The position numbers were made by a program, and so were the translations under genes. A stretch of 64,000 nucleotides of DNA, from assembly GCA_050115495.1 (NCBI GenBank), contig JASFQK010000014.1, forward strand, positions 81,587 to 145,586, written 5' to 3'. Of the stretch, positions 7,118 to 63,543 are shown one piece after another; the first letter of the stretch is position 1, and each line of letters opens with the position of its first letter. Below the pieces are notes generated by a model. That model worked only from the letters and a program-made list of their open reading frames with translations, was not told the origin of the DNA and did no database searches. Source of the DNA: Phycisphaerae bacterium (GTDB taxonomy: Bacteria > Planctomycetota > Phycisphaerae > UBA1845 > Fen-1342).

Positions 7118-9640
7118 CTACGGAGGTGGCAGCAGCAGGTCCACGAACGGACCAATGTCGAAGTTGTCCACGTTGCCGTCACCGTTCACATCCGCCAGCA
7201 TTCGGTTACAGCCGGGGTAGGCCGCGTAGTATTCGAGATAATCCGGCGGCGTGGCGGTGAGGGCCTTGATGAACGCGTTGACGTCGAAGTTGTCGATCGC
7301 TCCGTCGCAGTTGAGGTCGCCGATGGCTTGCTCCGGCTGGAACCAGTCGAGGATGTGCTCAAGCATGGTGGCCCGAGCTTCCGCCGTCGGCAGCGCCTCG
7401 AACGGGAAGCCCCAGAACGTTGTCCGATAAGCGCCGGTGTCCTTATTCACGGCCGCATTGCCGGCGTTGCCGGTGAACGCCACCTCAGCGTCCGGGTCGG
7501 CGTTGATCGTGTCGCTGTAGTTCGAAAACGGGTAGCTCAGGCTATACGGCCCCATCCCGCCGAACACCGAGCCGGTACCGGTCACGGTCGTCTGTGACAC
7601 GTCGCTGGTCGCGCTGGATACACCCAGATAGGTGCTCATGAAGTTCGTCAGCCCGCGGTCGTAGTAGTAGTCCTGCCCGCTGATGAACAGGCATCTCCCG
7701 CTATCCAGGTAGGTTGCCAGAGCCATTTCGCCCGCGGCACCCGGGCCAGCCGCGCCACCGTACTCCACACCGGTGAACCAGATCACGACTTCGTACGGGG
7801 CCAGTTCGATCGCACTGGGCTCGTTGTCCGAGTTATTCGTGTCCCAGAGGTCGTAGTCGTAGCCCAGCGTGGCCAGCGCTGTCGTGTAGTAGGACCGCAC
7901 GTCCGGGTTGTTGTCGTCGTCATCGACGAGAAGGATGCTCGGCGTGTCCCGGGTCGTGAAGCTGAACGTCTCCGAGAACTCGCCGTCGCCACACCCGTTC
8001 TCCGCCCGCACGTGCCAGTAGTACGTCCGAAGCGGCTCCAGGGCGACACCGACTCTGTGGCTGGTCCCCGGCCCGCCGGCCGCGTCGAGGATGTACGTGA
8101 ACGAGCTGTCCGCGGCCACCTCCACGTAGTATTCCAGAGCCCCGCTCGCGGCGTTCCACACGAGTTCCGGCGCCAGCGTCACGTTCGTCTCGCCGTTACC
8201 GGGCGATACGAGCGTCACCGTCCCCGGCAGGTCGTTCGACAAGTTGAGCCCGACGAACGCCGAACGCTGTCGCGACGCCGACGTCCCGCGCACCTCGACA
8301 TCGTACTCACCGGCCGGAGCCATCGACAGGTCACTCACCGTCAACACCGTCGTGAACGGCGGCACCTGCCCGTTCACACTGAACTGGGCCGCCGCCCCCG
8401 CCGGCAGCGACTTGGCCGACAGCGTCACCGTTTCGGCGAACTCGCCGACCGGCTTCACCTGGATCGTGTACACCGCCTCGTCATCGCCCGGCAGGCACAG
8501 GTCCTGCGTCGCCGGCGTCGCGACCATCTTGAACCCATGGCCACCCGGCAAATACAGCGCGGGATCACCCATCAGGTTGAACATCTCCGCCATGTTCCGC
8601 CGCACGTCCTCCGTGAAGTAGGTGTCGTTGATCAGGCGGTAGATGCCCGCCTGCCAAGCCGGCCCCACCTCCCAGATGTCGTCAACGAAGAAGGACTCGA
8701 AGAAATACTTCTCCAGTCGGCGTGAGGACTCCCATTGATCCCCGCCGTAGTAGATGAACGTCGAGGCCGAGATGTAGGCCGCGGCTCCCTTCCCGATCGC
8801 CCGCTGCCACGTCTCCGCGTAGCACTCCGGGTACTCGAAGTGCGTCGTGCTGCACGAGAAACCGAAGACCAGGCCGTACAGGTTCTCGTTGTCCAGGGCG
8901 TTCACGTTGCCCTGCTCGAAGGACGGCGCCCACCAGCCCTCGCTACCGCTGTGCCCGAAGTACACCGTGAACAGGCAGCCCTCGTTCACGGCGTTGGTGA
9001 CATCGCTCGTGTTTCCACCCAGCCGGGCGTAGATCTTCACGCTCTCGAATTCGGCAGGGTCCAGGTAGTTGGCGATTACCCAGTTGTGCGTCTCTTCGGC
9101 CCCGCTGCCGGTGTCGTTGGTGGCCAGCAGCGCCGCCCGACGCACGTAGTCCGGATTCGGGTAAATGCCGCTCTCCACCACCATGATCTTGTCGACGATG
9201 TATTCGAGCATGTCCGGGTCGGTGGCGGAAAGCCGCCCGATGAAGACGTCCGGATACCAGTCGTCGCCCGGATCCATGCAGGCGTACGGCAGGTCAGTCG
9301 TCGCGTGCTTCGTTGCGCCGCCCGACCAGTGCGGAATGGTGTACGTGTCCGAGGTCGAACCGCTCGTGTCGCCCACGAGCACGATGTAGTCCGGCGCGTC
9401 GGGCGTTCCCCATGACTCCTGGATTGTCTCTTTGATCGTCGTGTTGCTCGTCCCGGACGGAACCAGGTACAATGTCACGTTGAAGCCGGTCCCGTTGCGC
9501 AGCGCGATCAGATTGTTGAGGCCGGTCGAGTTGTTGTAGCCCTCGGCGGCCACGATCAGGTAATTGCCCCCGCCCGCGCTCGCCGCCATCACGACGCCCG
9601 CGGCCAGGCATACGGCCAACAACCTCTTCACTCCCTGCAT
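7118..9640 (-). CDS. Secreted C25 (gingipain-like) cysteine peptidase with FN3-like region and C-terminal dockerin-like domain
   Basis: RBS AAAGGAG; signal peptide; YIVLVGD, PDVFIGRL, His (YFGHSG) and Cys (FSCS), FNLMGDP; ends GDLNCDGAIDNFD...DVNGDGNVDNFDIGPF. Confidence 0.85.
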   Translation of the reverse strand: MQGVKRLLAVCLAAGVVMAASAGGGNYLIVAAEGYNNSTGLNNLIALRNGTGFNVTLYLVPSGTSNTTIKETIQESWGTPDAPDYIVLVGDTSGSTSDTYTIPHWSGGATKHATTDLPYACMDPGDDWYPDVFIGRLSATDPDMLEYIVDKIMVVESGIYPNPDYVRRAALLATNDTGSGAEETHNWVIANYLDPAEFESVKIYARLGGNTSDVTNAVNEGCLFTVYFGHSGSEGWWAPSFEQGNVNALDNENLYGLVFGFSCSTTHFEYPECYAETWQRAIGKGAAAYISASTFIYYGGDQWESSRRLEKYFFESFFVDDIWEVGPAWQAGIYRLINDTYFTEDVRRNMAEMFNLMGDPALYLPGGHGFKMVATPATQDLCLPGDDEAVYTIQVKPVGEFAETVTLSAKSLPAGAAAQFSVNGQVPPFTTVLTVSDLSMAPAGEYDVEVRGTSASRQRSAFVGLNLSNDLPGTVTLVSPGNGETNVTLAPELVWNAASGALEYYVEVAADSSFTYILDAAGGPGTSHRVGVALEPLRTYYWHVRAENGCGDGEFSETFSFTTRDTPSILLVDDDDNNPDVRSYYTTALATLGYDYDLWDTNNSDNEPSAIELAPYEVVIWFTGVEYGGAAGPGAAGEMALATYLDSGRCLFISGQDYYYDRGLTNFMSTYLGVSSATSDVSQTTVTGTGSVFGGMGPYSLSYPFSNYSDTINADPDAEVAFTGNAGNAAVNKDTGAYRTTFWGFPFEALPTAEARATMLEHILDWFQPEQAIGDLNCDGAIDNFDVNAFIKALTATPPDYLEYYAAYPGCNRMLADVNGDGNVDNFDIGPFVDLLLPPP

Positions 9641-9852
9641 GGGTTTTCTCCTTTCGGCCTTCCCATCCCATCGAATCGAGGACCTGCCGGCAGACAACCT
9701 CTCTTCCTGCGCGGTTGACGTGGTGCCGTCGCGCACAACCTCCTCCTCACCCGAACGCCCCCACCGCCCGGGGTTGCCGGCATTTCACGTTCAGTTTACA
9801 CAGATTACCCCCCGGCGCCCCTCCCTTTTTTGGCCCCTTTCCCGCACCCGTG

Positions 9853-11224: not shown

Positions 11225-13213
11225 CTACGGCCGTCGTCGGCGAAGCGTGAGGAACGCGCCGAAACCGATCACGGTGACGCCGTACGTGCTCATCCCGAGG
11301 GGGCCGCACGCACCACAGCTTATCGGAAGCGTCACGCCCCCGTCGGCGTCATCACCGCCGGTGCTGTCGGTCGTGCCATCGGCGTCGTCCTGCGGCAGGC
11401 CGCTGGTGCCGTCGGCATCGTCGTCACCGCCGTCGGCGCCGCCGGTGTCTTCGCACACGTCGCCGATGCCGTCGCCGTCCGAGTCGGTCTGGTCGGCGTT
11501 CTCGATGTACGGGCAATTGTCGTCGCAATCGAGCACGCCGTCGCCGTCGGTGTCGATGTCGGGCGTGCCGCAGCCGCAGTCGCCGGGAGCGGTCTTGCCG
11601 GGATCGTTCGGGCAATCGTCGGCGCTGTCGGGCGTACCGTCGTTGTCGGCGTCGGGCACGAGGCCGGCGTCGCGCGTGTTGTCGGTCGCGTGCGAGGCGA
11701 CGGTGAATATGGCCGTCCGACCGGTGTCGGCGTTTGCATCCGAGTCGAGTCCGTCATCGCCGCCCTGGTCCTGAAGCGTGAGGGCGTACCCGACGGGCGT
11801 AACGAAGCGCAGGTAGTAGTCGCCGGCCACGACGCTTAGGCTGTACGCGCCGCTGTTGTCGGTGGTCGTGTTGCTGATCAGCTCGTCATCGGCGTCGCCG
11901 GCGGTTCCATTGGCACCGGGGTAGTACACGAGCACGAGCGCGTTGGCCACGCCCGTCTCACCGCCGTCCTGGACACCGTCCTCGTCGGTATCGCCGAAGA
12001 CAAGGTCGCCGATCGTGGAGAACACCGCCATACCCGCATCGACGTTCTCCGCATCCTCGCCCGAGGCGACCCAGAACGGGTTTGTCTTGCCGGTGGACGG
12101 CTCGGCGTCGCTGTCGACGGTGTCGTCGCTGCCGCGATCCCGCTGCGTGAGCGAGAGGTTCGACGCGCCCGGCGGCGTGAAGCTCACGTAGTACCGGCCG
12201 GGGACGAGGTTCGTGAAGCTGTACGTCCCGCTGGTGGACTGATCGCCGCCGACCTGCGTTGGCGTGCCGTCGTCGGCCACGCGGTACAACTTCACGGTGG
12301 CGTTGCCCGTGATGTCGCCTTCGCTGTTGTCCTGGAGGCCGTCGCCGTCCTCGTCGTGGAAGACGCGGCCGGAAACGCCGGCGTACTCGTAGAGGCCGGC
12401 GTCACGCTCGGTGTCATCCTCGCCGACGGTCACTTCGAAGCGCGCGGTGCGGCCGGTGCCGGTGTCCACGTCGCTGTCCACAGTCGTGTCGCTGCCCTGG
12501 CTCTGCGCCGTGAAGTGGTAGCCCGTGGGCAGATCGACCTGCACGTAGTAGAAGTCGTGGAGCACGTTCGTGAACGTGTACTTGCCGTCGTCGTCGGTGG
12601 TGGTGACGTCCATCTGCACGTCGTCGCCATCGCCGACCGTGGTGTTCACCGGGTCGATGAGGCGCACGGTCACGTCGGCCAGGCCGGTCTCGCCGGAATC
12701 CTGGATACCGTCGCCATCGTCATCGATGAAGACGAAGTCGCCGATCGACGCCGGCAGCACGAGGCCGCAATCGACTGTGTCGTCGAGTTCGCCGGCGGTC
12801 GCCAGGGTAATCGTGGCGGTGCGGCCGTCGTGGTCGGCGACGCTGTCACCGCCGGTGATGGTGAAGATCCGCCCGGTCGGGGCGGTGAAGATGACGTAGT
12901 AGGTGCCGGTAGCGAGGCCGGAGAAGAGGTACGCGCCGGAGTTGTCGGACGTCGTCGTGCTGATCAGGTTGTCGTCGCCGTTGTAGGCGGTGCCGTCGGC
13001 GCCGCGGTCGTAGAGGCGGATGGTCACGGCGGACACGCCGGTCTCGCCGTCGCCGGGCTCGTAGTTGCCATCGCCGTCGACGTCGTAGAAGACCAGATCG
13101 CCGATGGAGGCCGCCTGGGCGCTCCCGCCGGGAACAAGGAGTAGCGCCACGAGCAACAACACGGTGGCCCAGCTCATGCCCATCCAGCCAGTCGATCGCG
13201 TTCCCTGCTGCAT
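11225..13213 (-). CDS. Surface protein with four SdrD B-like domains, thrombospondin type-3-like repeats and a C-terminal membrane anchor
   Basis: Repeated 'SIGD.VF.D.DGDG.QD.GE.G' ... 'DSD.D..TG.T' ... 'DAGL' units; DxDxDG..D..DNCP repeats; hydrophobic tail plus RRRR. Confidence 0.85.
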   Translation of the reverse strand: MQQGTRSTGWMGMSWATVLLLVALLLVPGGSAQAASIGDLVFYDVDGDGNYEPGDGETGVSAVTIRLYDRGADGTAYNGDDNLISTTTSDNSGAYLFSGLATGTYYVIFTAPTGRIFTITGGDSVADHDGRTATITLATAGELDDTVDCGLVLPASIGDFVFIDDDGDGIQDSGETGLADVTVRLIDPVNTTVGDGDDVQMDVTTTDDDGKYTFTNVLHDFYYVQVDLPTGYHFTAQSQGSDTTVDSDVDTGTGRTARFEVTVGEDDTERDAGLYEYAGVSGRVFHDEDGDGLQDNSEGDITGNATVKLYRVADDGTPTQVGGDQSTSGTYSFTNLVPGRYYVSFTPPGASNLSLTQRDRGSDDTVDSDAEPSTGKTNPFWVASGEDAENVDAGMAVFSTIGDLVFGDTDEDGVQDGGETGVANALVLVYYPGANGTAGDADDELISNTTTDNSGAYSLSVVAGDYYLRFVTPVGYALTLQDQGGDDGLDSDANADTGRTAIFTVASHATDNTRDAGLVPDADNDGTPDSADDCPNDPGKTAPGDCGCGTPDIDTDGDGVLDCDDNCPYIENADQTDSDGDGIGDVCEDTGGADGGDDDADGTSGLPQDDADGTTDSTGGDDADGGVTLPISCGACGPLGMSTYGVTVIGFGAFLTLRRRRP

Positions 13214-29304: not shown

Positions 29305-31287
29305 CTAGCGTGAGATCAACTGCACGAACGGCCCAATGTCGAAGTTGTTGAGCTGGCCGTCCTCGTTGACATCACCGAACATCGGATCGCACTCCGGGTA
29401 TTGCTCGGCGTAGCCCTCGGGGTTGGTCAGGGCCAGCACGAACGGGGCGATATCGAAGTTGTCGACGACACCGTCACAGTTCAGGTCGCCGGTGCCGGAC
29501 AGCGTCGCGATGCAGCCCCACTGGCTGAGGCTGGTCGTCACCAGGTCAACGTTTCGCGCCATGACGCCGAAGCAGTAGGTTATTTCCGGCTGCAAGCCGT
29601 ACACGACGAGGTCGTCCCAGTCGCCCAACTGCTGCCAGACGGCGTCTTCGTCATTCGTACCGGTGGCGTAACCGAGCTCGTCGATCCACTGACCGTCCAT
29701 CGCCGGGTCGCCGGTGGTGTAGGCGCACTGGATGGCGAACTCGGTGGTGGCCGGGTTGCTGGCGGGATCGATCGTGACGGCGATCGTCTGGGCGCCGGTG
29801 GCGACAAGGGTCGGGCGGCCGGGGCGCATGGCCAGTGTGTAGGCCGAGGCCGGGTCGCTGTAGCCGGTCTCGTTGCCCGAGCCGTCACGCGCCTTGACCT
29901 CGTACGTGTAGGCCGTGTTGGGCTGGAGACCGGTATTGGCGTAGCCACGCGTGGGCTGCCAGCCGCTGTCGGCGCCGCCCGAGCCGCCGGAGACGAGGTG
30001 GAAGTAGTACTCGATCGCGGGCGAACCGCTGTCCGAGGCCTCGACCGCACTCATGGTGACCTGCGTGTCGCTGGTCGCGGCCGGAAACAGTTCGAACTCC
30101 ATCGGATCGGGCGTGGGCGGCGTCACATCGGCCGGGCCGAGAACGTTGAGGTAGAACTCGCCGGTCGCAGCATCGTTGCCGGCAACGCGGATGTAGTACG
30201 TCTCGGCCTCATACACGTCCACGTCCAGGCAGGACTGGAGGGAACCGACGTCGCAGATGTCGCTATCGTCGTTGCAGGCAAGCTGGTTGGCCGCAGTGCC
30301 CGGACACCCGGTGTGCACGGACAGGACGGTGTCCAGAGTTGAGCCGCAGGTGTCGAGGTAGAGCGTGCCGTCGGCCTTGGCGGTGTAAGTGTACCAGACG
30401 TCGGGGGAGGAGTTGGACGAGCCGCAACTGGCGGAGCCGTCATTGGTGGCGTCGCTGGTGTGGCCCTCTTCCGTGCCGTCCTCCACGTCGCGAGCGTCGG
30501 AGCAGTCGTCGGCCGGTCCCGAGGGCGGGAAGGGCCAGAGCATCGTATGCGACTGGAAGACTTCGGCGCGGTTGCTGGGTCCGCCGGTCGATTGGGGCTC
30601 CTGGGCCCAGATGATGATCTTGATGTTGCTCTGGTGGGACCAGCTATACGAATCGAACGTGAACTGCCGCTCCACGGTCTGGCACTGACCGGGACTGAGG
30701 TAGATGTCCTGGGTGGCAGCGGCCTGCTTGAAGCCGTTGCGGCAATAGCTGGGGCTGGTCGGCCAGTGGTCGAGAACCTGCACCATGTAGATGCGCATGC
30801 TCTTGGCCGTGCCACCGGCCTCCATGCAGATGGTGGCTTCGACGTTGTAGGTGGTGCCGCTGACGAAATCGCCGGTGGCGGTGATGATCACGTCCGTCGG
30901 CAGGACGGCTCGGCTGTTAAACTCGTTGTAGTAAAGGGCATACGTGTGGCTGCCGCTGTGCTTGACCGTACCGTCGAAGTAGGTCGTCGGATACCCGGTG
31001 GCATCCTGGTAGAAGCTCCAGCGGGCGTTGGCCCAGGAGGTTTCGTAGTCGTCGCCGCGGTGAATCTGGACAAACGAGAACGTGGTCGGGTAGTTCTCCA
31101 TCAACTGGGCCAGGATCGGGCCGGCCTGTGCGCAATAGCTGCACCAGGTCGCGGTGAATTCCTCCCCCAGCACTGTCCGCGTCGCTCCGGAGGCGGTTAC
31201 GGGCATCGCTGCGAGAACCACGATCGCCAGGATCCCCCCGAGCCACAAGCTTCTCCGTGTGTAGCTACAACAGCCTTCCATCTCCAT
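29305..31287 (-). CDS. Secreted thioredoxin/Omp28-like (CxxC) - FN3 - dockerin-like protein (Cys paralogue)
   Basis: Signal peptide; 'VLGEEFTATWCSYC', 'GYPT..FDG' cis-Pro loop; 'GLQPNTAYTYEVKARD' FN3; GDLNCDG dockerin-like end. Confidence 0.85.
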   Translation of the reverse strand: MEMEGCCSYTRRSLWLGGILAIVVLAAMPVTASGATRTVLGEEFTATWCSYCAQAGPILAQLMENYPTTFSFVQIHRGDDYETSWANARWSFYQDATGYPTTYFDGTVKHSGSHTYALYYNEFNSRAVLPTDVIITATGDFVSGTTYNVEATICMEAGGTAKSMRIYMVQVLDHWPTSPSYCRNGFKQAAATQDIYLSPGQCQTVERQFTFDSYSWSHQSNIKIIIWAQEPQSTGGPSNRAEVFQSHTMLWPFPPSGPADDCSDARDVEDGTEEGHTSDATNDGSASCGSSNSSPDVWYTYTAKADGTLYLDTCGSTLDTVLSVHTGCPGTAANQLACNDDSDICDVGSLQSCLDVDVYEAETYYIRVAGNDAATGEFYLNVLGPADVTPPTPDPMEFELFPAATSDTQVTMSAVEASDSGSPAIEYYFHLVSGGSGGADSGWQPTRGYANTGLQPNTAYTYEVKARDGSGNETGYSDPASAYTLAMRPGRPTLVATGAQTIAVTIDPASNPATTEFAIQCAYTTGDPAMDGQWIDELGYATGTNDEDAVWQQLGDWDDLVVYGLQPEITYCFGVMARNVDLVTTSLSQWGCIATLSGTGDLNCDGVVDNFDIAPFVLALTNPEGYAEQYPECDPMFGDVNEDGQLNNFDIGPFVQLISR

Positions 31288-31525: not shown

Positions 31526-33508
31526 CTAGCGCGAGATCAACTGCACGAACGGCCCAATATCGAAGTTATTGAGTTCACCGTCCTCGTTGATGTCGCCAAA
31601 CAGGCGGTCGCAGTCTGGGTACCGCTCGGCGTAGCCCTCCGGGTTGGTCAGGGCCAGCACGAACGGGGCAATATCGAAGTTGTCGACGGTACCGTCGCAG
31701 TTCATGTCGCCGAGGCCGGACAGCGTCGCGGCACAACTCCACTGACTGAGACTGGTCATCACCATATCCACGTTCCGCGCTTTCACGCCGAAGCAGTACG
31801 TGATTTCCGGTTGCAAGCCGCGCACCGTGAGGGTGCCCCACGCATCCAACGACTGCCAGACAGCATCCTCGTCATTGGTCCCGTGGGCGTAGCCGAACTC
31901 GTCGATCCACTGGCCTTCCATCGCCGGGTCGCCGGTGGTGTAGGCGCACTGGATGGCGAACTCGGTGTAGGCCGGGTTGCTGGCCGGATCGATCACGAGG
32001 TCCATGTTCCGGCCGCTCAAGGGGGTGAGCGTCGGGCGACCGGGGCGCATGGCCAGCGTGTTAGCCGAGGCCGGATCGCTGTAGGCCGTCTCGTTGTCCG
32101 AGCCGTCGCGCGCCTTCACCTCGTAGGTGTAGGCCGTGTTGGGCTGGAGACCGGTGTCGATGTAGCCACGGTCGGGCTGCCAGCCGCTGTCGGTGCCACC
32201 CGACCCGCCGGAGACGACGTGGAAGTAGTACTCGATGGCCGGTGAGCCGTTGTCCGAGGCCTCGACCGCACTCATGGTGATCTGCGATTCGCTGGTCGCG
32301 AACGGAAGCAGCTCGAACTCCATCGGATCGGGCGTGGGCGGCGTCACGTCGGCCGGGCCGAGCACGTTGAGGTAGAACTCGCCCGTCGCGCCGTCGTTGC
32401 CGGCGATGCGGATGTAGTACGTCTCGGCCTCATACACGTCCACCTCCAGGTAGGACTGGAGGGAGCCGGTGCCGCAGACGTCGCTGTCGTCGTTGCAGCC
32501 GAGCTCGTTGGCCGCGGTGCCCGGGCACCCGGTGTGCACGGACAGGACGGTATCCAGCGCCGAGCCGCAAGTGTCGACGATGAGCGTGCCGTCGGCCTTG
32601 GCGGTGTAGGCGTACCACACGTCCGGGGACGAGTTGGACGAGCCGCAACTGGCCGAGCCGTCATTGGTAGCGTCATTGGTATGACCGTCTTCGGTGCCAT
32701 CCTCGATATCGCGGGCGTCACTGCAGTTGTCCGCCGGTCCCGAGGGCGGGAAGGGCCAGAGCATGGTGTGCGACTGGAAGACCTCAGCGCGGTCGCTGGG
32801 TCCGCCGGTCGATTGAGGCTCCTGGGCCCAAATGATAATCTTGATGTTGTTCTGGTTGGCCCAACTGGTGCTGTCGAACGTGAACTGTCGTTCGACGGTC
32901 TGGCACTGGCCGGGGGTGAGGTAGATGTCCTGCGTCGTGGCGCCCTGCTTGAGCCCGTTGCGGTGGTAGTTGGGGCTGCTCGGCCAGTAGTCGAGCACCT
33001 GCACCATGTAGATGCGCATGCTCTTGGCCGTGCCACCGGACTCCATGCAGATGGTCGCCGTGACGTTGTACGTCGTACCGCTGATGTAATCACCGGTCGC
33101 CTCGATCAACACGTCGGTGGGGAGCACTTGGCGGCTGTGAAATTCGTTGTAGTAGAGGCTGTAAACGTGACTGCCGCTGTGCCGCACCGTGGCGTCAAAG
33201 AACGTGGTGGGGTAGCCGGTGAGGTCAACGTAGAAGTTCCACCGGGCATTACCCCAGCTCGTGCCGTAAGAGTCGTTGTAGTGGATTTGAACGAACGAGA
33301 AGGTGTTGGGATAGTTGTTGAGTAGTTGGCTTAAGACGGGACCCGCCTGAGAACAATAGCCTCAGCCGGTGTTGGTGAACTCTTCGCCCAGGACGACACG
33401 GGTAGCCCCGGAAGCCGTCATGGGCGTCGCTGCCACGAGCGCGGCGCCCAGGATCCCCCAGAGCCAGAGGCTTCTCCTTCGGTCGCTGCTACAGCCTTGC
33501 ATCTCCAT
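31526..33508 (-). CDS. Probable selenoprotein: secreted thioredoxin/Omp28-like (UxxC) - FN3 - dockerin-like protein with in-frame TGA at codon 49
   Basis: Reading through TGA 33364-33362 gives MEMQGCSSDRRRSLWLWGILGAALVAATPMTASGATRVVLGEEFTNTG-U-GYCSQAGPV..., the same 1983-nt length as the neighbour, with TGA aligned to its Cys49; SECIS-like hairpin follows. ATG33502 is an alternative start. Confidence 0.85.
33328..33361 (-). promoter_or_regulatory. Candidate bacterial SECIS element
   Basis: UGA-GGCU...AGGCGG-GUC-CCGUCU-UA-AGCC: upper stem AGGCGG/CCGUCU, lower GGCU/AGCC, GGUC starting 19 nt after UGA; absent in the Cys paralogue. Confidence 0.7.
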
Positions 33509-33599
33509 CTCCTTAAACAGTGTTTAGATGGCAGCGCCGGCGCAACAAGACATGGGGCAGACCGGCCCCACCCTGCCGAAACAGCCACCGGCGCCTTCT

Positions 33600-33768: not shown

Positions 33769-34866
33769 ATGACGCCAGTCGCGACTGCGTCCGACGCCCC
33801 CTGCCGGCTCCTGGTCGTCGTCCCCAACTGGGTCGGTGACGTCGTGCTGGCCTCACCCACACTGGCCGCCCTCCGAGCCGGGATGCCCCGGGCGCGGATC
33901 ACCTACCTCCTGCGGCGGTACGTCGGCGAGATCGTCGATGGCTGCGGCTGGCACGACGAGTGCGTCTACTGGTCCCAGCGCGGCGGCAAACGGGAGGGCG
34001 GGTTGCTCCGCCTGGCCGGCCGGCTGCGGGCCGGGCGCTTCGATCTGGCGGTGCTGCTGACGAACTCGTTCCGGTCGGCGTTGACGGTCCGGCTCGCCGG
34101 CATCCCCCGTCGAGTCGGCTACGCCCGGGAACTGCGGGGCTGGCTGCTGACGGACCGGCTCCGTCCGCTACGACGTGACGGCGTGTTCGTGCCGGCCAGC
34201 GTGCTCCCCTACTACGCGAAGCTGGCCGAGCACGTGCGTTGCCCCGTGACCGATTACGGCCTGCGGCTGGCGGCCAGCCCCGAACAGCAGCGCCAAGGGG
34301 CGGCGCTCCTCGCCCACTACGGCCTGGACGACGGCCGGCCGTACGCCGTCGTTAACCCCGGGGCGAAGTTCGGCGCGGCCAAGTGCTGGCTGCCGGAGCG
34401 CTTCGCCGAGCTGTGCGACCGGCTGCACCGCGAGCACGATCTGCGGCCGGTCCTGGTCGGTAGCCCGGACGAGGCCCCCCTGATGCGGCAGATCGCCGAG
34501 GCGACGACCGAGCCCACCGTCTGCTGTGTTGAGCCGGGAACGACGCTCGGCTCGCTGAAGGTCGTGATCGGCGGGGCGGCCCTGCTCGTCTGCAACGACA
34601 CCGGCCCGCGGCATTACGGGCTGGCTTTCGGCGTGCCGACGGTCACGCTCTTTGGACCGACGCACCAGGAGTGGACAGACACCGGCTCTTCGGCTGAAAT
34701 CAAGCTTCAGGTGTCCGTCGACTGCGGCCCGTGCCAGTTGCCCCGCTGCCCGCTCGACCACCGCTGCATGACCCGGCTGACCACCGACATGGTCATGCAG
34801 GCCGTGGCGGAGTTGCTCGGCCGCCGGGCCTCGGTTCCGTCGCCGACGGACGTGACGACGCATTGA
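33769..34866 (+). CDS. waaF: Lipopolysaccharide heptosyltransferase II (GT9)
   Basis: PNWVGDVV, LTNSFRSA, NPGAKFGAAKCW, NDTGPRH, LFGPT. Confidence 0.88.
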   Translation: MTPVATASDAPCRLLVVVPNWVGDVVLASPTLAALRAGMPRARITYLLRRYVGEIVDGCGWHDECVYWSQRGGKREGGLLRLAGRLRAGRFDLAVLLTNSFRSALTVRLAGIPRRVGYARELRGWLLTDRLRPLRRDGVFVPASVLPYYAKLAEHVRCPVTDYGLRLAASPEQQRQGAALLAHYGLDDGRPYAVVNPGAKFGAAKCWLPERFAELCDRLHREHDLRPVLVGSPDEAPLMRQIAEATTEPTVCCVEPGTTLGSLKVVIGGAALLVCNDTGPRHYGLAFGVPTVTLFGPTHQEWTDTGSSAEIKLQVSVDCGPCQLPRCPLDHRCMTRLTTDMVMQAVAELLGRRASVPSPTDVTTH

Positions 34867-34877
34867 CTACCAGGGCC

Positions 34878-35804
34878 ATGGCCATGCCGGCAGTGGATTA
34901 CATCAGTGTCGATCCCGCCTACCGCGAGGTGCTGCACGCCGCCGGGCTGACCTCGGTGGACAGCATCCTCTCGCGGTTGGACGGCGATGTGGCCGCCTGG
35001 AGCCGCAGCACCGACACGCTGCATGTTCCCGGGCCCGCGGGCGGCCCCGGCTTCTACCTCAAACGCTACTACTACGCGACGTGGCGGAAACGCTTCCGAA
35101 CGATGCTCCGCGGCACGTTCTTCGGCGTACACCGCGGTGAGGCCGAGTATGCCGCGTTGCAGGCGATGCGGAACCTGGGCATTAACGCGGCGCGACCGGT
35201 CGCGTACGGAGCGCGGCGACTCGCCCATTTCGTCACGGCCTGCTTCCTCATCACCGAGGAAGTCCCCGGCAGCACCAACCTCACGACGTTCGCAAGTGAC
35301 GTGGCGGCCGGGCGGCGAGCGCTGACCCGCGCCGAGCGGCTGGCGATGATCGCCCGCCTCGCCCGCCAGGTCACCGAGATGCACGCCGCCGGCTTCTGCC
35401 ACGGGCAAATGTTCTGGCGGAACATCCTCGTTCGGCGGGGGCTCGACGGGCAGCCCGAGTTCTTCTTCCTCGACGCGCAGCCGCCGCCATCGTGGCGACG
35501 CGTGAGCCCCACCGCGGCGTGGTGGCACCGCGAACTGGCCAATCTCCTCATCTCCGCCCTGCCGTTCACGACGCGCACGGACCGGTTGCGTTTCCTGCGG
35601 CACTATCTCGGCGGCCGGCTCAAGCCCGAGATCAAGGCTCACGTCCACGCCATCGAGGCCTGCTCGCGGCAGTGGCACCGTCACGAGCTGCAACGCATCA
35701 AGATGAACGACCTCTTCGAACGCTGGCGGCGTCAGCTCGACCTGGAGCACACTCCCGCAGCTCAGACCGAGGTGAATGCGGCCCGCGACGGAGCGTCGCC
35801 TTGA
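34878..35804 (+). CDS. Lipopolysaccharide kinase (Kdo/WaaP/InaA family)
   Basis: YLKRY, LITEEV, MHAAGFCHGQMFWRNIL, FLD, RTDRLRFLRHY. Confidence 0.82.
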   Translation: MAMPAVDYISVDPAYREVLHAAGLTSVDSILSRLDGDVAAWSRSTDTLHVPGPAGGPGFYLKRYYYATWRKRFRTMLRGTFFGVHRGEAEYAALQAMRNLGINAARPVAYGARRLAHFVTACFLITEEVPGSTNLTTFASDVAAGRRALTRAERLAMIARLARQVTEMHAAGFCHGQMFWRNILVRRGLDGQPEFFFLDAQPPPSWRRVSPTAAWWHRELANLLISALPFTTRTDRLRFLRHYLGGRLKPEIKAHVHAIEACSRQWHRHELQRIKMNDLFERWRRQLDLEHTPAAQTEVNAARDGASP

Positions 35805-36655
35805 CCTCCGGCCAGTGGACCGCCCCCGAGTGGGAGGACCGTCTGCGCCGGGCCGGTCTGAATGCCGCCACCGATCTGCTCGACCGCGCCCCCGATCAGC
35901 TTTCTCTCGCCGGCACGTGCGAATTGTTGAGCAAGCCGGGTCTGGCCGAGCGGCAACGGTGGCGCTGGACGCTGCCCGAGGGCGATGCCGTTCTCTACAT
36001 CAAGCGGTACGGCCGCGCACCGTCTCGCATGCAGTGGGACCGCATCGTCCGGCAGAGCTCCCGGCACAGCCGCGGCTGGTGGGAACACACGCAGGGCAAA
36101 CGGCTCGCCGGGGCGTACGTGCCGGCGGCCGGCGCCGTCGCCTGCGCCGAACGCATGAACGGGCTGATCGAGCAGCGCAGCGTTGTCGTGCTGGCCGCCG
36201 TCGCCGGCGATGGTCTGGACCGTGTGTGGACGCGGCTGTCGGCGGAAGGCGCTCCACTGACACGCGGCCTGGCCCGGCACGATCTGGCCGTTCGCCTGGG
36301 ACGCTTCGTCTCGGCGTTTCATCAGACCGGGTTGTGTCACCGCGATCTGTACCTGTGCCACGTCTTCGCCGAACTCGATCCGGCCGGCACCCGCCCGCCG
36401 ACGTTCACGCTCATCGACCTGGCGCGCACATTTCAGCCACGCTTGCGGCGGACGCGCTGGCTGCTAAAGGACCTGGCACAGCTCGACTGCTCGGCCCGGC
36501 AGGTCGGCGTGTACCGCACGGATCGGCTGCGTTGCCTGCGGGCTTACCTGGGGCTGCAAACACGGGCCGCCCGGCTCCGCTGGTACGCTCGCCGGGTGCT
36601 ACGCCGAAGTGACGCCATTCTGCGGCGCATCGCGAGGAAGAGTGCATTGGCATGA
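35801..36655 (+). CDS. Lipopolysaccharide kinase (WaaP-like)
   Basis: LYIKRY, HRDLYLCH, LIDLAR, KDLAQL; TTG start overlaps the previous stop. Confidence 0.85.
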   Translation: MTSGQWTAPEWEDRLRRAGLNAATDLLDRAPDQLSLAGTCELLSKPGLAERQRWRWTLPEGDAVLYIKRYGRAPSRMQWDRIVRQSSRHSRGWWEHTQGKRLAGAYVPAAGAVACAERMNGLIEQRSVVVLAAVAGDGLDRVWTRLSAEGAPLTRGLARHDLAVRLGRFVSAFHQTGLCHRDLYLCHVFAELDPAGTRPPTFTLIDLARTFQPRLRRTRWLLKDLAQLDCSARQVGVYRTDRLRCLRAYLGLQTRAARLRWYARRVLRRSDAILRRIARKSALA

Positions 36656-37845
36656 AGGTCGCCATCGTCCAGGAGACTGTGGACGCGCGTCGCGGCGGTG
36701 CGGAGACGTCGACGCTGGAGATGGCCCGCGGACTGGCCAGCCTCGGACTCGACGTGAGCATTCTGTGCCGCGCGGCACCGCCGGATGTCGTCGATGAGCC
36801 GCGGCTGCGCGTGGTTCGGCTGCGGGCCGGCGGGCTGTCGCGGACGCTGCGGACGTTCAGCTTTCTCCGTGCCGTGCTTCGGCAGCGGCTCAGGGAGCAC
36901 TTCGATATCATCCACGCTGTCACGCCGTGCCTCGCGGCGAATGTCTATCAGCCGCGCGGCGGCACATACCATGAGACGATCGAACGCAACCTGGCCCTCA
37001 TCGACTCGGATGGGCTGCGAGCTCTGAAGCGCTTCGCCTCGCATTTCAACCTACGCCGCCGGTTCCTGCTGAACATGGAAGAGACATTACTCCGCAAGCG
37101 TCGGCACCGCGTGTTCGTCGCCGCCCTGTCGGCGTACGTCCAGCGGCAGGTGATCGAAGGTTACGGCTTCCCCGCCGAACGCACGCCGATTGTGTTCAAC
37201 GGCGTGGATATTGCGCCATTGTCGGATGAGGAGATCGGGGCAGCCTGCGTTGCTGTGCGGACGCGCCTGCACCTGGAGCCGAACACGCCGGTCGTGCTCT
37301 TCGCGGCGCACAACTTCAAGCTGAAGGGGCTCGCTGAGCTGATACGGGCGTGGTCGCTGCCGGCCGCGGGGGCGACTGCGGGCCGCCATCTCATCGTCGC
37401 CGGCCGCGATCGACAGGGCTCCTACCGCCGGCTCGCTAGCAAGCTGGGCGCGGCAGAGACGATCCACTTCGTCGGCGCCGATCTGCCAATCCGTGAGCTC
37501 TACGCTGGCGCGGATGCGCTGGCTCATCCGACTTGGTACGACCCGTGCTCGCGCGTCGTGCTCGAGGCGCTTTCGCTGGGCCTGCCGGTCGTCACGACTC
37601 GCCACAATGGGGCCGCGGAGGTCATGCAGGCGGACCATCATGGCGTCGTCGTGGAGAGTGCGGCGGACGTGCCGGCGCTGGCGGCGGCGATCGACCGCGT
37701 GCTGGATCCGGGCGTCCGGGCAGCATGTTGGGCAGACGCGGAACGCTTGCGGGAGCAGGTGTCGATGGCGCGGCACGTCCGAGAACTGCGCCAGCTCTAC
37801 ACGACCGTCGTCGCCACGGAGAGACAACGGCTTCGGGAGCGGTAA
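36652..37845 (+). CDS. Glycosyltransferase family 4 (WaaG-like)
   Basis: GGAE, FNGVD, NFKLKG, HPTWYDPCSRVVLEALSLGLPVVTT. Confidence 0.9.
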   Translation: MKVAIVQETVDARRGGAETSTLEMARGLASLGLDVSILCRAAPPDVVDEPRLRVVRLRAGGLSRTLRTFSFLRAVLRQRLREHFDIIHAVTPCLAANVYQPRGGTYHETIERNLALIDSDGLRALKRFASHFNLRRRFLLNMEETLLRKRRHRVFVAALSAYVQRQVIEGYGFPAERTPIVFNGVDIAPLSDEEIGAACVAVRTRLHLEPNTPVVLFAAHNFKLKGLAELIRAWSLPAAGATAGRHLIVAGRDRQGSYRRLASKLGAAETIHFVGADLPIRELYAGADALAHPTWYDPCSRVVLEALSLGLPVVTTRHNGAAEVMQADHHGVVVESAADVPALAAAIDRVLDPGVRAACWADAERLREQVSMARHVRELRQLYTTVVATERQRLRER

Positions 37846-61930: not shown

Positions 61931-62614
61931 CTACTTGGCGTGCGGGCACTTCCCGAGGGTCAGGAACCAATCGAGGACGGTGAGGTCACCGCCGGAGGTC
62001 TCGACGCGTTCCTTGGCCGCGCCGCAGGAGCCGGGCGGCGGGACGATGACGTCCTCACCGGGCTGCCAGTTGGCGGGGGTGGCAATCTGGTGCTCGTCGG
62101 AATGCTGCATAGCGAGCAGGAGACGCTTGATCTCCTGCATGTTGCGCCCGGTCGTCAGCGGGTAATAGAGGATCGACCGCACGATGGCCTGGGGGTCGAT
62201 CATGAAAACGGCGCGGACGGCCTGGGTCGTGCTCTCCGCCGGCTGGAGCATGCCGAACTTCTTGGAGACCTCCATCGTGAGGTCGCTGATGACGGGGAAC
62301 ATGACCTCGACGCCCTTCATGTTCTTGTAGACGATCCTCTCTTTAATCGTGCGCAGCCAGGCGATGTGGCTGTAGGTGCTGTCGATGGACAAGCCGAGCA
62401 GTTCGCAGTTGAGGGCCTTGAACTCGGCGGCCATGCTGGCGAAGGTCATGAACTCCGTCGTGCAGACGGGCGTGAAGTCGGCGGGGTGCGAGAAGAAGAT
62501 GACCCACTTGCCCTTGTAGTCCTTCGGGAAGTTGATCTTGCCCTGCGTCGTCTCGGCCTCGAACGAAGGCGCCTTCTCGCCGATCAAGGGCAGCCGGACA
62601 GCCTGCTCACACAT
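61931..62614 (-). CDS. Peroxiredoxin (Prx6/TDXH-like)
   Basis: FSHPADFTPVCTTEF, YP.TTGRN..EI, TPANWQPGEDVI, DWFL. Confidence 0.94.
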   Translation of the reverse strand: MCEQAVRLPLIGEKAPSFEAETTQGKINFPKDYKGKWVIFFSHPADFTPVCTTEFMTFASMAAEFKALNCELLGLSIDSTYSHIAWLRTIKERIVYKNMKGVEVMFPVISDLTMEVSKKFGMLQPAESTTQAVRAVFMIDPQAIVRSILYYPLTTGRNMQEIKRLLLAMQHSDEHQIATPANWQPGEDVIVPPPGSCGAAKERVETSGGDLTVLDWFLTLGKCPHAK

Positions 62615-63543
62615 CGTGGTCTCCTCGTATGGACCTCTTGCAACCACGGCTACGGCATCGCCGGCGGCCGGGCCCTTTCCCGGCACGGGTCCGCCCGCGG
62701 GCCTTTTTGCACGCGCAAGTTGACCGAGGTCCCCGGGTGTTTCGGCTCGTAATAGGACAGTAGTCACTGACCCCGCCCGGTTCAAGGGCGCGGTCTCCCC
62801 CCCTACCCCCTTTCCGCCGACGAGAACACCGCCCGGCGGTCGGCGCAGAATCGTTGCGGACAGACCGTTTAAGAAGGCGTTCTTCCGCAGAATTCGTGGG
62901 TTGGATCTGGGGGAACCGGCTCCGCAGTTTTCCCAGTCCCCTTCCTTGGGCTTCTTTCCCCTCACATGGGGCCCGGAGGACCCGCACGCCAAAGCGGCCC
63001 CGACATTCGAGGGGCGCGCCCCAGGAACGGGCCGTGCCAGATTCGCCGTGTTTTGCCGGACGGAACGCCTCCCGGATGAGCCCCGAGTGGCCAGAAGTCA
63101 CCCACGAATTCTGCTGAGGAGGCCACGAAAAGGAGATGGATATGACAACGTGAGGGCTCCTCGTAGCCGATCCGGCCGCAGGACTCCAAACGCGCAAGTC
63201 CTTGTTACACAAGGAGGACGGAATAAACCGGAGGGACAACCGATTACGCGAGTCCATGAAAACCCGGAAAGGCAAGAATTCGAAGTGATCAAGATCCCAC
63301 GGATTTCACAGCTTGGTGCTGCTGGCAGTTTGTGATAGAAACAAGGTGAAAGGGGGTTTGTTCTTGATGCCGATGTGGGCCCCTTCTGCTCGCCGTTCAC
63401 CATCCAACGCCGAGAGGGAAGGAGGCTACCCGGTAAACGTCGCTTCGCTCCGGTGGGTGTTCAACAGCGTCGGACAGCTCGGTCACCTGCCCCGGAACGA
63501 GCGTTCAAGATCCGCGGAAGGCCCAAGAACGGAGGAAATGGCG

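Follow-up and report, generated by a model that had tools for sequence, protein, structure and literature searches.

Is the UGA codon that interrupts a long reading frame in a Phycisphaerae bacterium decoded as selenocysteine (Sec), and is the RNA hairpin directly behind it a functional selenocysteine insertion sequence (SECIS) element? The gene in question lies at 31526..33508 on the minus strand of a 64,000-nucleotide stretch of contig JASFQK010000014.1 (GenBank assembly GCA_050115495.1), which we analyzed as a whole and call the window. Codon 49 of this gene is UGA (33362..33364, minus strand), and the hairpin occupies 33334..33348 of the same strand. From the comparative evidence below, and for Sec insertion itself by analogy with Escherichia coli, we consider it probable, at about 0.88, that the hairpin is a functional bacterial SECIS element and that UGA49 is read as Sec. 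The evidence supports a conventional bacterial SECIS of known kind, with fdhF-like spacing, in the gene of a selenoprotein with a UxxC motif in a thioredoxin fold.

The frame starts with an ATG at 33508, preceded by AAGGAG, and comprises 660 codons before a TAG stop at 31526. When the TGA is read as U, the translation runs through 660 residues with no further stop in frame. The residues around codon 49 are E-E-F-T-N-T-G-U-G-Y-C, i.e., U49-G-Y-C52 forms a UxxC motif. The UGU codon at 33353..33355 (minus strand) would supply the resolving Cys of this motif, a near-invariant residue (C19) in alignment A5 of the family, from which six copies with contig-edge or extra-stop problems were left out. 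We delimited the gene by its read-through translation, its identity to a paralogue, its Pfam and NCBIfam matches and an AlphaFold2 (AF2) model. In order, its parts are a signal-peptide-like N-terminus, a thioredoxin-fold domain with U49-G-Y-C52, a β-sandwich, a middle region with GBD- and fn3-like parts, and dockerin-like repeats at the C-terminus.

The paralogue is encoded directly downstream on the same strand (29305..31287) and is likewise 660 residues long. The two proteins share 81% identity in an ungapped alignment that includes the 48 residues before the UGA. The paralogue's T-W-C-S-Y-C aligns with the UxxC motif, and a TGC codon (31141-31143) stands opposite the UGA of the window's Sec copy.

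For the RNA analysis we numbered nucleotides with the U of UGA as 1. An initial annotation had described a SECIS-like hairpin with fdhF geometry in the TGA copy, and the RNA it quoted is identical in every letter to the reverse complement of window positions 33328-33364. In RNAfold predictions for segments of 60 and 45 nt, A17-G22 paired with C26-U31 in the minimum free energy (MFE) and centroid structures alike, which is the proposed stem of AGGCGG and CCGUCU around a GU-containing loop. This core hairpin (nt 17-31), which is also backed by family covariation and a covariance-model match as described below, has an energy of -5.9 to -6.5 kcal/mol on its own. Its apical loop G23-U24-C25 (33340..33342, minus strand) is the presumed SelB contact, because G23 and U24 are conserved in 67 Sec copies and fdhF has them at the same positions. 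If the pair G22-C26 opens, the loop becomes the pentaloop GGUCC (33339-33343, minus strand).

The 45-nt fold adds a lower helix, in which GGCU (nt 4-7; 33358-33361) pairs with AGCC (nt 34-37; 33328..33331, minus strand), giving a total of -9.7 kcal/mol. This second stem, which had been proposed together with the first, hence forms in the window copy, but it is copy-specific and not a family feature: across the 67 Sec copies only 40% of its cells were paired, no better than in slid controls. The Cys paralogue lacks the core stem and its GU loop, as had been stated. It is not free of structure, though, since a different hairpin was found there at 31108-31126 (minus strand), where GGCCGG and CUGGCC form 6 bp around the loop CCCGAUC with -9.2 kcal/mol. 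This hairpin has no G at the start of its loop, and the paralogue has GGC where the Sec copy has GGU.

GGUC stands at nt 22-25 of the window copy and begins 18 nt after the UGA. The fdhF sequence given for comparison in the initial annotation matches that of E. coli K-12, where GGUC occupies the same nt 22-25 and forms a loop closed by A21-U26; we hence conclude that 'fdhF geometry' is a correct description. Both elements are coding-region hairpins just 3' of the UGA, and in both GGU is a Gly codon after an Ala codon. According to the account of the fdhF minimal element (nt 15-31) in PMC8659212, U17 is bulged, G23 and U24 lie in the loop, and SelB binds at U17 and G23. There are differences as well. 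The fdhF mini-hairpin of nt 15-31 sits on a conserved long lower helix, whereas the stem of the present family starts at nt 17 (nt 15 in Holophagae copies) and its lower helix is not conserved. Moreover, the host proteins are unrelated.

The consensus for bacterial SECIS elements given in PMC13188914 asks for a loop of 3-9 nt, an upper stem of 4-16 bp, a distance of 16-37 nt from the UGA and an MFE of at most -7.5 kcal/mol; one of the first two loop positions holds a G, after which G or U is the usual base. The window hairpin resembles this bSECISearch consensus in its 3-nt loop GUC on 6 bp (or GGUCC on 5 bp), in G23-U24 at the loop start, in the 19 nt (nt 4-22) between UGA and loop, and in its position 3' of an in-frame UGA that is aligned to Cys. 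It also shares with it a structure that is conserved with compensatory changes in UGA homologues and relaxed in Cys homologues. As to the energy term, the value of the window core given above stands beside -9.7 kcal/mol with the private lower stem (nt 1-45) and a family median of -9.9 kcal/mol.

We redrew the synonymous codons of the same peptide 200,000 times. GGU together with all six pairs arose in 0.22% of draws with the codon usage of the other window genes and in 0.52% with the usage of the two paralogues. The rare codons of this segment had been attributed to selection on RNA structure, and for UUA this explanation fits: TTA accounts for 5 of 778 Leu codons in the window genes and for 0 of 75 elsewhere in the two paralogues, and its U31 pairs with A17 in the hairpin. 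UCU, UGU, CAA and CUA, on the other hand, lie outside the conserved helix. A family-wide preference for UUR over CUN Leu codons at nt 31-33 was not significant (27/38 vs 8/17, p = 0.13).

Homologous copies were collected with a word-index protein search that yielded 22 relatives, whose alignment was then used in one scan of GTDB species genomes. The 75 loci found were mostly from metagenome-assembled genomes (MAGs) of Phycisphaerae/Phycisphaerales, with others from Holophagae, Thermoanaerobaculia and Pirellulales. Codon 49 was mapped by phmmer on stop-to-stop translations, and 95 copies from these loci and the window had enough sequence. TGA was present in 67 of them and TGC or TGT in 24, while four had other codons; one copy counted as Cys, L057, has a TGA three codons downstream. 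Several genomes contain two or three TGA copies each.

Most of the 22 relatives start at a Met about 14 residues past the motif, as a gene caller would yield on meeting an in-frame TGA. In an exhaustive profile search, 4856 cluster representatives matched at E <= 0.001, of which 1135 remained at E <= 1e-10. Among the best 150 representatives, 98 begin at profile positions 26-48, just past the UGA, and 52 are full length; CxxC was present in 50 of the 57 full-length proteins examined. The public calls (P0003, P0006-P0010 and others) mostly take as their start a Met, Leu or Val that lies shortly 3' of the UGA, among them the window's own database entry P0003 with 533 aa. As the annotated starts lie 3' of the UGA, the active-site motif is absent from the annotated proteins.

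Nearly every TGA copy has the same element, e.g., CGCGGGUCCCGCG, CGCCGGUCAGGCG and CGCGGGUACCGCG. Loss of the hairpin from other TGA-bearing homologues had been named beforehand as the outcome that would tell against a SECIS. We found that 59 of 67 Sec copies satisfy the published bacterial SECIS criteria, compared with 10 of 24 Cys copies (p = 2e-5). The median MFE of nt 13-39 was -9.9 kcal/mol in Sec and -6.4 kcal/mol in Cys copies (p = 5e-5), and G+C 3' of the hairpin was slightly lower (0.51 vs 0.55, p = 0.017). With a strict definition of the hairpin, i.e., GGU and four named pairs, it was present in 51/63 Sec and 6/22 Cys copies; these counts are conservative, since the definition missed real hairpins in another register, for example the one with the tetraloop GGUC in L007.

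All 67 aligned Sec copies have G23, and for U24 conservation is at least 90%. The 8-pair helix from 15-33 to 22-26 was paired in 79.1% of cells vs 67.7% in shuffles, and 63 cells had changed on both sides vs 29.6 in shuffles. The covariation score of 0.337 was reached by none of 500 shuffles (0.163), and slid controls scored 0.057-0.136. In the Cys copies the same helix was paired in 63.7% of cells, and its score of 0.206 was reached by 18 of 500 shuffles; this comparison used 21 of the 24 Cys copies, as L057, L049 and L067, which were misaligned or at a contig edge, had been dropped from alignment A3. Pairs 19-29, 20-28 and 22-26 are dictated by the peptide A-G-P-A/V and therefore have no evidential weight. 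The signal lies at synonymous sites. Pair 21-27, which joins the wobble bases of an Ala and a Pro/Gln/Thr codon, is G-C in 42 and C-G in 18 Sec copies, while another count gave 39 and 19, and it is formed in 59/67 Sec vs 12/21 Cys copies. Pair 17-31 is A-U in 29 and C-G in 17 Sec copies, and the window's G18-C30 is a rare compensatory variant of the family's usual C-G. Moreover, the loop Gly codon (nt 22-24) is GGU in 60/62 Sec vs 9/20 Cys copies (Fisher p = 7e-7), with GGT making up 18% and 16%, respectively, of the remaining Gly codons of the same genes. Compensatory stem changes and GGU enrichment in Sec copies thus bear out the proposal of selection on RNA structure. A similar pattern is described for group 4 [NiFe] hydrogenases in PMC13582414, where the loop G is conserved in Sec forms, while Cys forms keep hairpins and lose the loop G by synonymous changes. 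The Sec/Cys contrast in our family follows the same pattern, in another protein family and at another loop position, and it includes a tandem Sec/Cys pair in one genome.

Some copies depart from the common arrangement. L057:6088-6135 reads C-G-V-U, with no Cys after it, and L073:6088-6135 reads U-G-A-D; both have a one-codon insertion, and their hairpin is displaced 3 nt downstream. Three Holophagae copies (L074:5016, L068:2907 and L075:2849) have the peptide U-x-x-C-x-T-T-M-R and a different 7-bp stem, and despite the other peptide their loop AGGUA still holds GGU. In L075:2849, which may be degenerate, the domain contains several further TGA codons.

We built a covariance model (R1) from 62 Sec copies (alignment A4), leaving out the window copy itself, L073 and the three Holophagae copies L074:5016, L068:2907 and L075:2849. 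R1 was run over all 64 kb on both strands with filters off. It matched the TGA copy at 33317-33364 (minus strand) with 42.6 bits (E 3.8e-9). The Cys paralogue obtained 17.0 bits (E 0.013), which is noise level, and the best unrelated match in the 64 kb had 16.1 bits.

A quick maximum-likelihood tree was calculated from 85 N-terminal domains with the motif columns removed, and it is unrooted. It needs at least 14 Sec/Cys changes, and well-supported branches make six of them unavoidable. Within a subclade of nine Sec and two Cys rows, the Sec and Cys copies of the window group as sisters (SH-aLRT 99). Given this sister placement, the Cys paralogue is most simply read as a copy that converted from Sec to Cys after a local duplication and whose SECIS has decayed. 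Tandem Sec/Cys pairs occur in three loci, i.e., in the window, in L015 (6055 and 7824) and in L042 (4089 and 6115). The members of the L015 pair are also sisters (SH-aLRT 99), and the two sister pairs suggest repeated local duplication followed by a Sec/Cys switch.

Several results speak against a SECIS function of the window hairpin. Compared with dinucleotide shuffles it is not unusually stable (z = -0.34 for 60 nt and -0.13 for 45 nt; 68-82 of 200 shuffles fold equally well). The genuine fdhF element, however, reaches only z = -1.56, so that bacterial SECIS elements can hardly be told from background in this way. With -6.5 kcal/mol the window hairpin ranks 65 of 67 in stability, near the weakest of the family, and it is one of the eight Sec copies that failed the energy threshold of -7.5 kcal/mol when only nt 10-45 were folded; it attains -9.7 kcal/mol only with its private lower stem. 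In place of the bulged U17 of fdhF, the window and the family consensus have a continuous G+C-rich stem. Rfam gave no match, neither for the whole window at the gathering threshold nor for 33200-33520 at E <= 10. A full GGU hairpin is also present in six Cys copies (L006:6118, L011:4463, L015:6055, L026:6037, L035:6106 and L039:6118), where it is either a fossil or a pre-adapted SECIS element. As the peptide gives much of the stem and these six Cys copies keep the hairpin, structure alone does not prove function. On the tree, only six independent Sec/Cys contrasts were supported, which leaves the sign test underpowered (median p = 0.125); the hairpin went with Sec in about 4.1 of them, against it in 0.1 and did not change in 1.8, a direction that agrees with a SECIS. 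Finally, there was no selA, selB or selD among the 37 open reading frames (ORFs) scanned and no tRNA in the 64-kb window, and no tRNA-Sec in any of the 75 homologue loci. PMC4807772 reports complete Sec-insertion gene sets for some Planctomycetes, which makes the Sec trait plausible in the phylum; that this organism has its own set is presumed by analogy.

The low stability raises the possibility that the SECIS is in decay, i.e., that the Cys paralogue is replacing the Sec gene and that insertion at UGA49 has become inefficient or is lost. The hairpin's rank within the family, a G-U pair in its stem and a Val in place of Ala would agree with this, as would the adjoining Cys sister copy and the Sec/Cys switches on the tree. 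We nevertheless regard decay as improbable. GGU and the six stem pairs have all been kept, with a compensatory G-C at 18-30 where the family has C-G. The rare UUA preserves A17-U31, and the private lower stem lifts the stability to -9.7 kcal/mol. The frame is intact as well, and the end branch of the Sec copy (0.096) does not exceed the one leading to the Cys copy (0.11).

Alternatively, the hairpin could be a mere by-product of the A-G-P-A/V peptide, whose codons GCN GGN CCN GCN/GUN are self-complementary, and have no role in decoding. Three of the six core pairs (19-29, 20-28 and 22-26) are indeed set by the first and second codon positions of this peptide, Cys copies with the same peptide still pair 63.7% of cells and in six cases retain the complete GGU hairpin, and the Cys paralogue, too, forms a hairpin at this place. 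The positions that the peptide leaves free, however, differ between the two groups. The prevalence of GGU in Sec copies far exceeds that in Cys copies and the 18% at other Gly codons, and the wobble pair 21-27 is formed in most Sec copies with G-C/C-G swaps, compared with 12 of 21 Cys copies. Synonymous resampling recovers the window element in only 0.2-0.5% of draws, and the T-T-M-R variants retain the GGU loop on another peptide. A by-product is hence very unlikely.

That the TGA is a real stop, in a pseudogene, through an assembly error or between two genes with a dead or re-initiated downstream frame, is hardly credible: gene callers do treat it so, and P0003 (533 aa) and 98 of the 150 best representatives start 3' of the motif, but TGA stands at the same codon in 67 copies from many independent assemblies with E-E-F-T in frame directly upstream, several genomes have two or three TGA copies, and the identity to the Cys paralogue runs through the TGA without a break, with no other stop in 660 codons. 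A global reassignment of TGA was considered separately and is ruled out; five of the 16 confident window genes stop at TGA, and the genetic code is therefore standard.

If the hairpin acts as a SECIS in the way known from E. coli, then with UGA49 in the ribosomal A site the stem-loop, 13 nt downstream, would offer G23-U24 to the C-terminal domain of SelB. SelB would compete with release factor 2 and deliver Sec-tRNA(Sec). Translation would then continue to the end of the frame and yield a secreted protein of 660 residues, whose thioredoxin fold has a U-x-x-C redox centre where helix 1 begins. That SelB binds, that Sec is inserted and that the Sec machinery is present are all assumptions transferred here from E. 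coli. In the RNA, the peptide A-G-P-A/V would fix five of the base pairs of the hairpin through the first and second codon positions, with 19-29, 20-28 and 22-26 fixed outright, and selection at synonymous sites would supply the GGU loop and pairs 21-27, 18-30 and 17-31.

The N-terminal domain of the paralogue gave weak Pfam thioredoxin matches. A profile of 85 copies matched many thioredoxins in the Protein Data Bank (PDB), and judged by the aligned ranges its position 16 (U) falls on Cys32 of E. coli thioredoxin. From the sequence alignment, U49 would thus occupy the position of the nucleophilic N-terminal active-site Cys of thioredoxin. In the AF2 model of residues 34-254 (pLDDT 97.6), U immediately precedes helix 1 of a thioredoxin fold, and a β-sandwich comes after this fold; the order of the modelled elements fits the β-α-β-α-β-β-α thioredoxin core, in which a CxxC-type motif marks the start of helix 1. 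In Foldseek, these residues had as their top structural match HBP35 of Porphyromonas gingivalis (PDB 5y1a; TM 0.75, E 7e-10), which was also a sequence-profile match and likewise has a thioredoxin domain followed by a β-sandwich. The identity is only 13%, however, and HBP35 has Cys and is cargo of the type IX secretion system (T9SS), so that its function is not transferable. An 872-residue ORF at 7118-9736 (minus strand) weakly resembles PorU, the type IX secretion sortase (E 8e-12, far short of the cut-off), which is of interest because of the HBP35-like fold of the selenoprotein's N-terminal domain.

The closest NCBIfam model is NF045500, 'Omp28-related selenoprotein'. The window protein scored 39.3 bits (E 4.8e-10) against a cut-off of 200 and is therefore a distant relative and not a member; 77 of 85 relatives matched the model, with a best E of 4e-25. 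PMC13188914 equates NF045500 with 'hypothetical protein GOS_C', a Trx-like protein with UxxC, and lists 74 Sec and 312 Cys sequences; GOS_C goes back to ocean metagenomes, as reported in 2008 (PMC2398784). The two families share a Trx-like fold with UxxC, numerous Cys homologues and a SECIS-like hairpin 3' of the UGA. The window protein differs in being a 660-residue multidomain protein with a β-sandwich, fn3-like parts and dockerin-like repeats, and its homologues come from MAGs of Phycisphaerae, Holophagae and relatives, not from ocean surface reads. A 662-residue ORF at 11225-13213 (minus strand) has SdrD/SdrC-like repeats and matches NF045500 over a short stretch in the model's C-terminal part; it is no paralogue of the redox domain.

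In both paralogues, the last approximately 60 residues comprise two dockerin-like or EF-hand-like repeats, G-D-x-N-x-D-G-x-V-D-N-F-D, and the middle region has GBD_T9SS_assoc-like and fn3-like matches below the Pfam cut-offs. Judged from these sequence features, the repeats and the middle domains suggest a surface-anchored protein. A search of the literature that lay outside the planctomycete selenoprotein lists in tables S8/S9 of PMC4807772 found no description of the family. It thus appears to be unannotated as yet and to be systematically truncated by public gene calls.

Two neighbouring regions may be mentioned. A lipopolysaccharide (LPS)-core cluster at 33769-37845 (plus strand) adjoins the selenoprotein gene and encodes heptosyltransferase II, two RfaP-like kinases and a GT4 glycosyltransferase. 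A peroxiredoxin ORF at 61931-62992 (minus strand) has a 125-residue N-terminal extension in the longest-ORF call and also matches the selenoprotein-type PrxU model, with 115 bits at a cut-off of 270.

With UGA49 read as Sec, the locus should be annotated as one 660-residue selenoprotein in place of a 48-codon stub and a 553-codon ORF, and most public relatives need to be corrected in the same way. The family also offers a case for SECIS evolution, in which a peptide motif encodes most of the stem and selection is visible only at synonymous sites. Its Cys copies span all stages from intact 'fossil' hairpins to full decay, and G23-U24 at the fdhF distance is now seen in MAGs of Planctomycetota and Acidobacteriota. 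The occurrence of UxxC selenoproteins that are secreted and bear dockerin repeats, together with the tandem Sec/Cys pairs, hints at a connection between extracytoplasmic redox chemistry and the supply of selenium. It is conceivable, though in our view doubtful, that Phycisphaerae, Holophagae and relatives have a large, essentially unannotated family of multidomain selenoproteins that are secreted, and that its tandem Sec/Cys pairs serve as a selenium-availability back-up for extracytoplasmic thiol/selenol redox on dockerin-anchored surface complexes. If so, cells would use the Sec form as long as they have selenium and turn to the Cys form when selenium is lacking.

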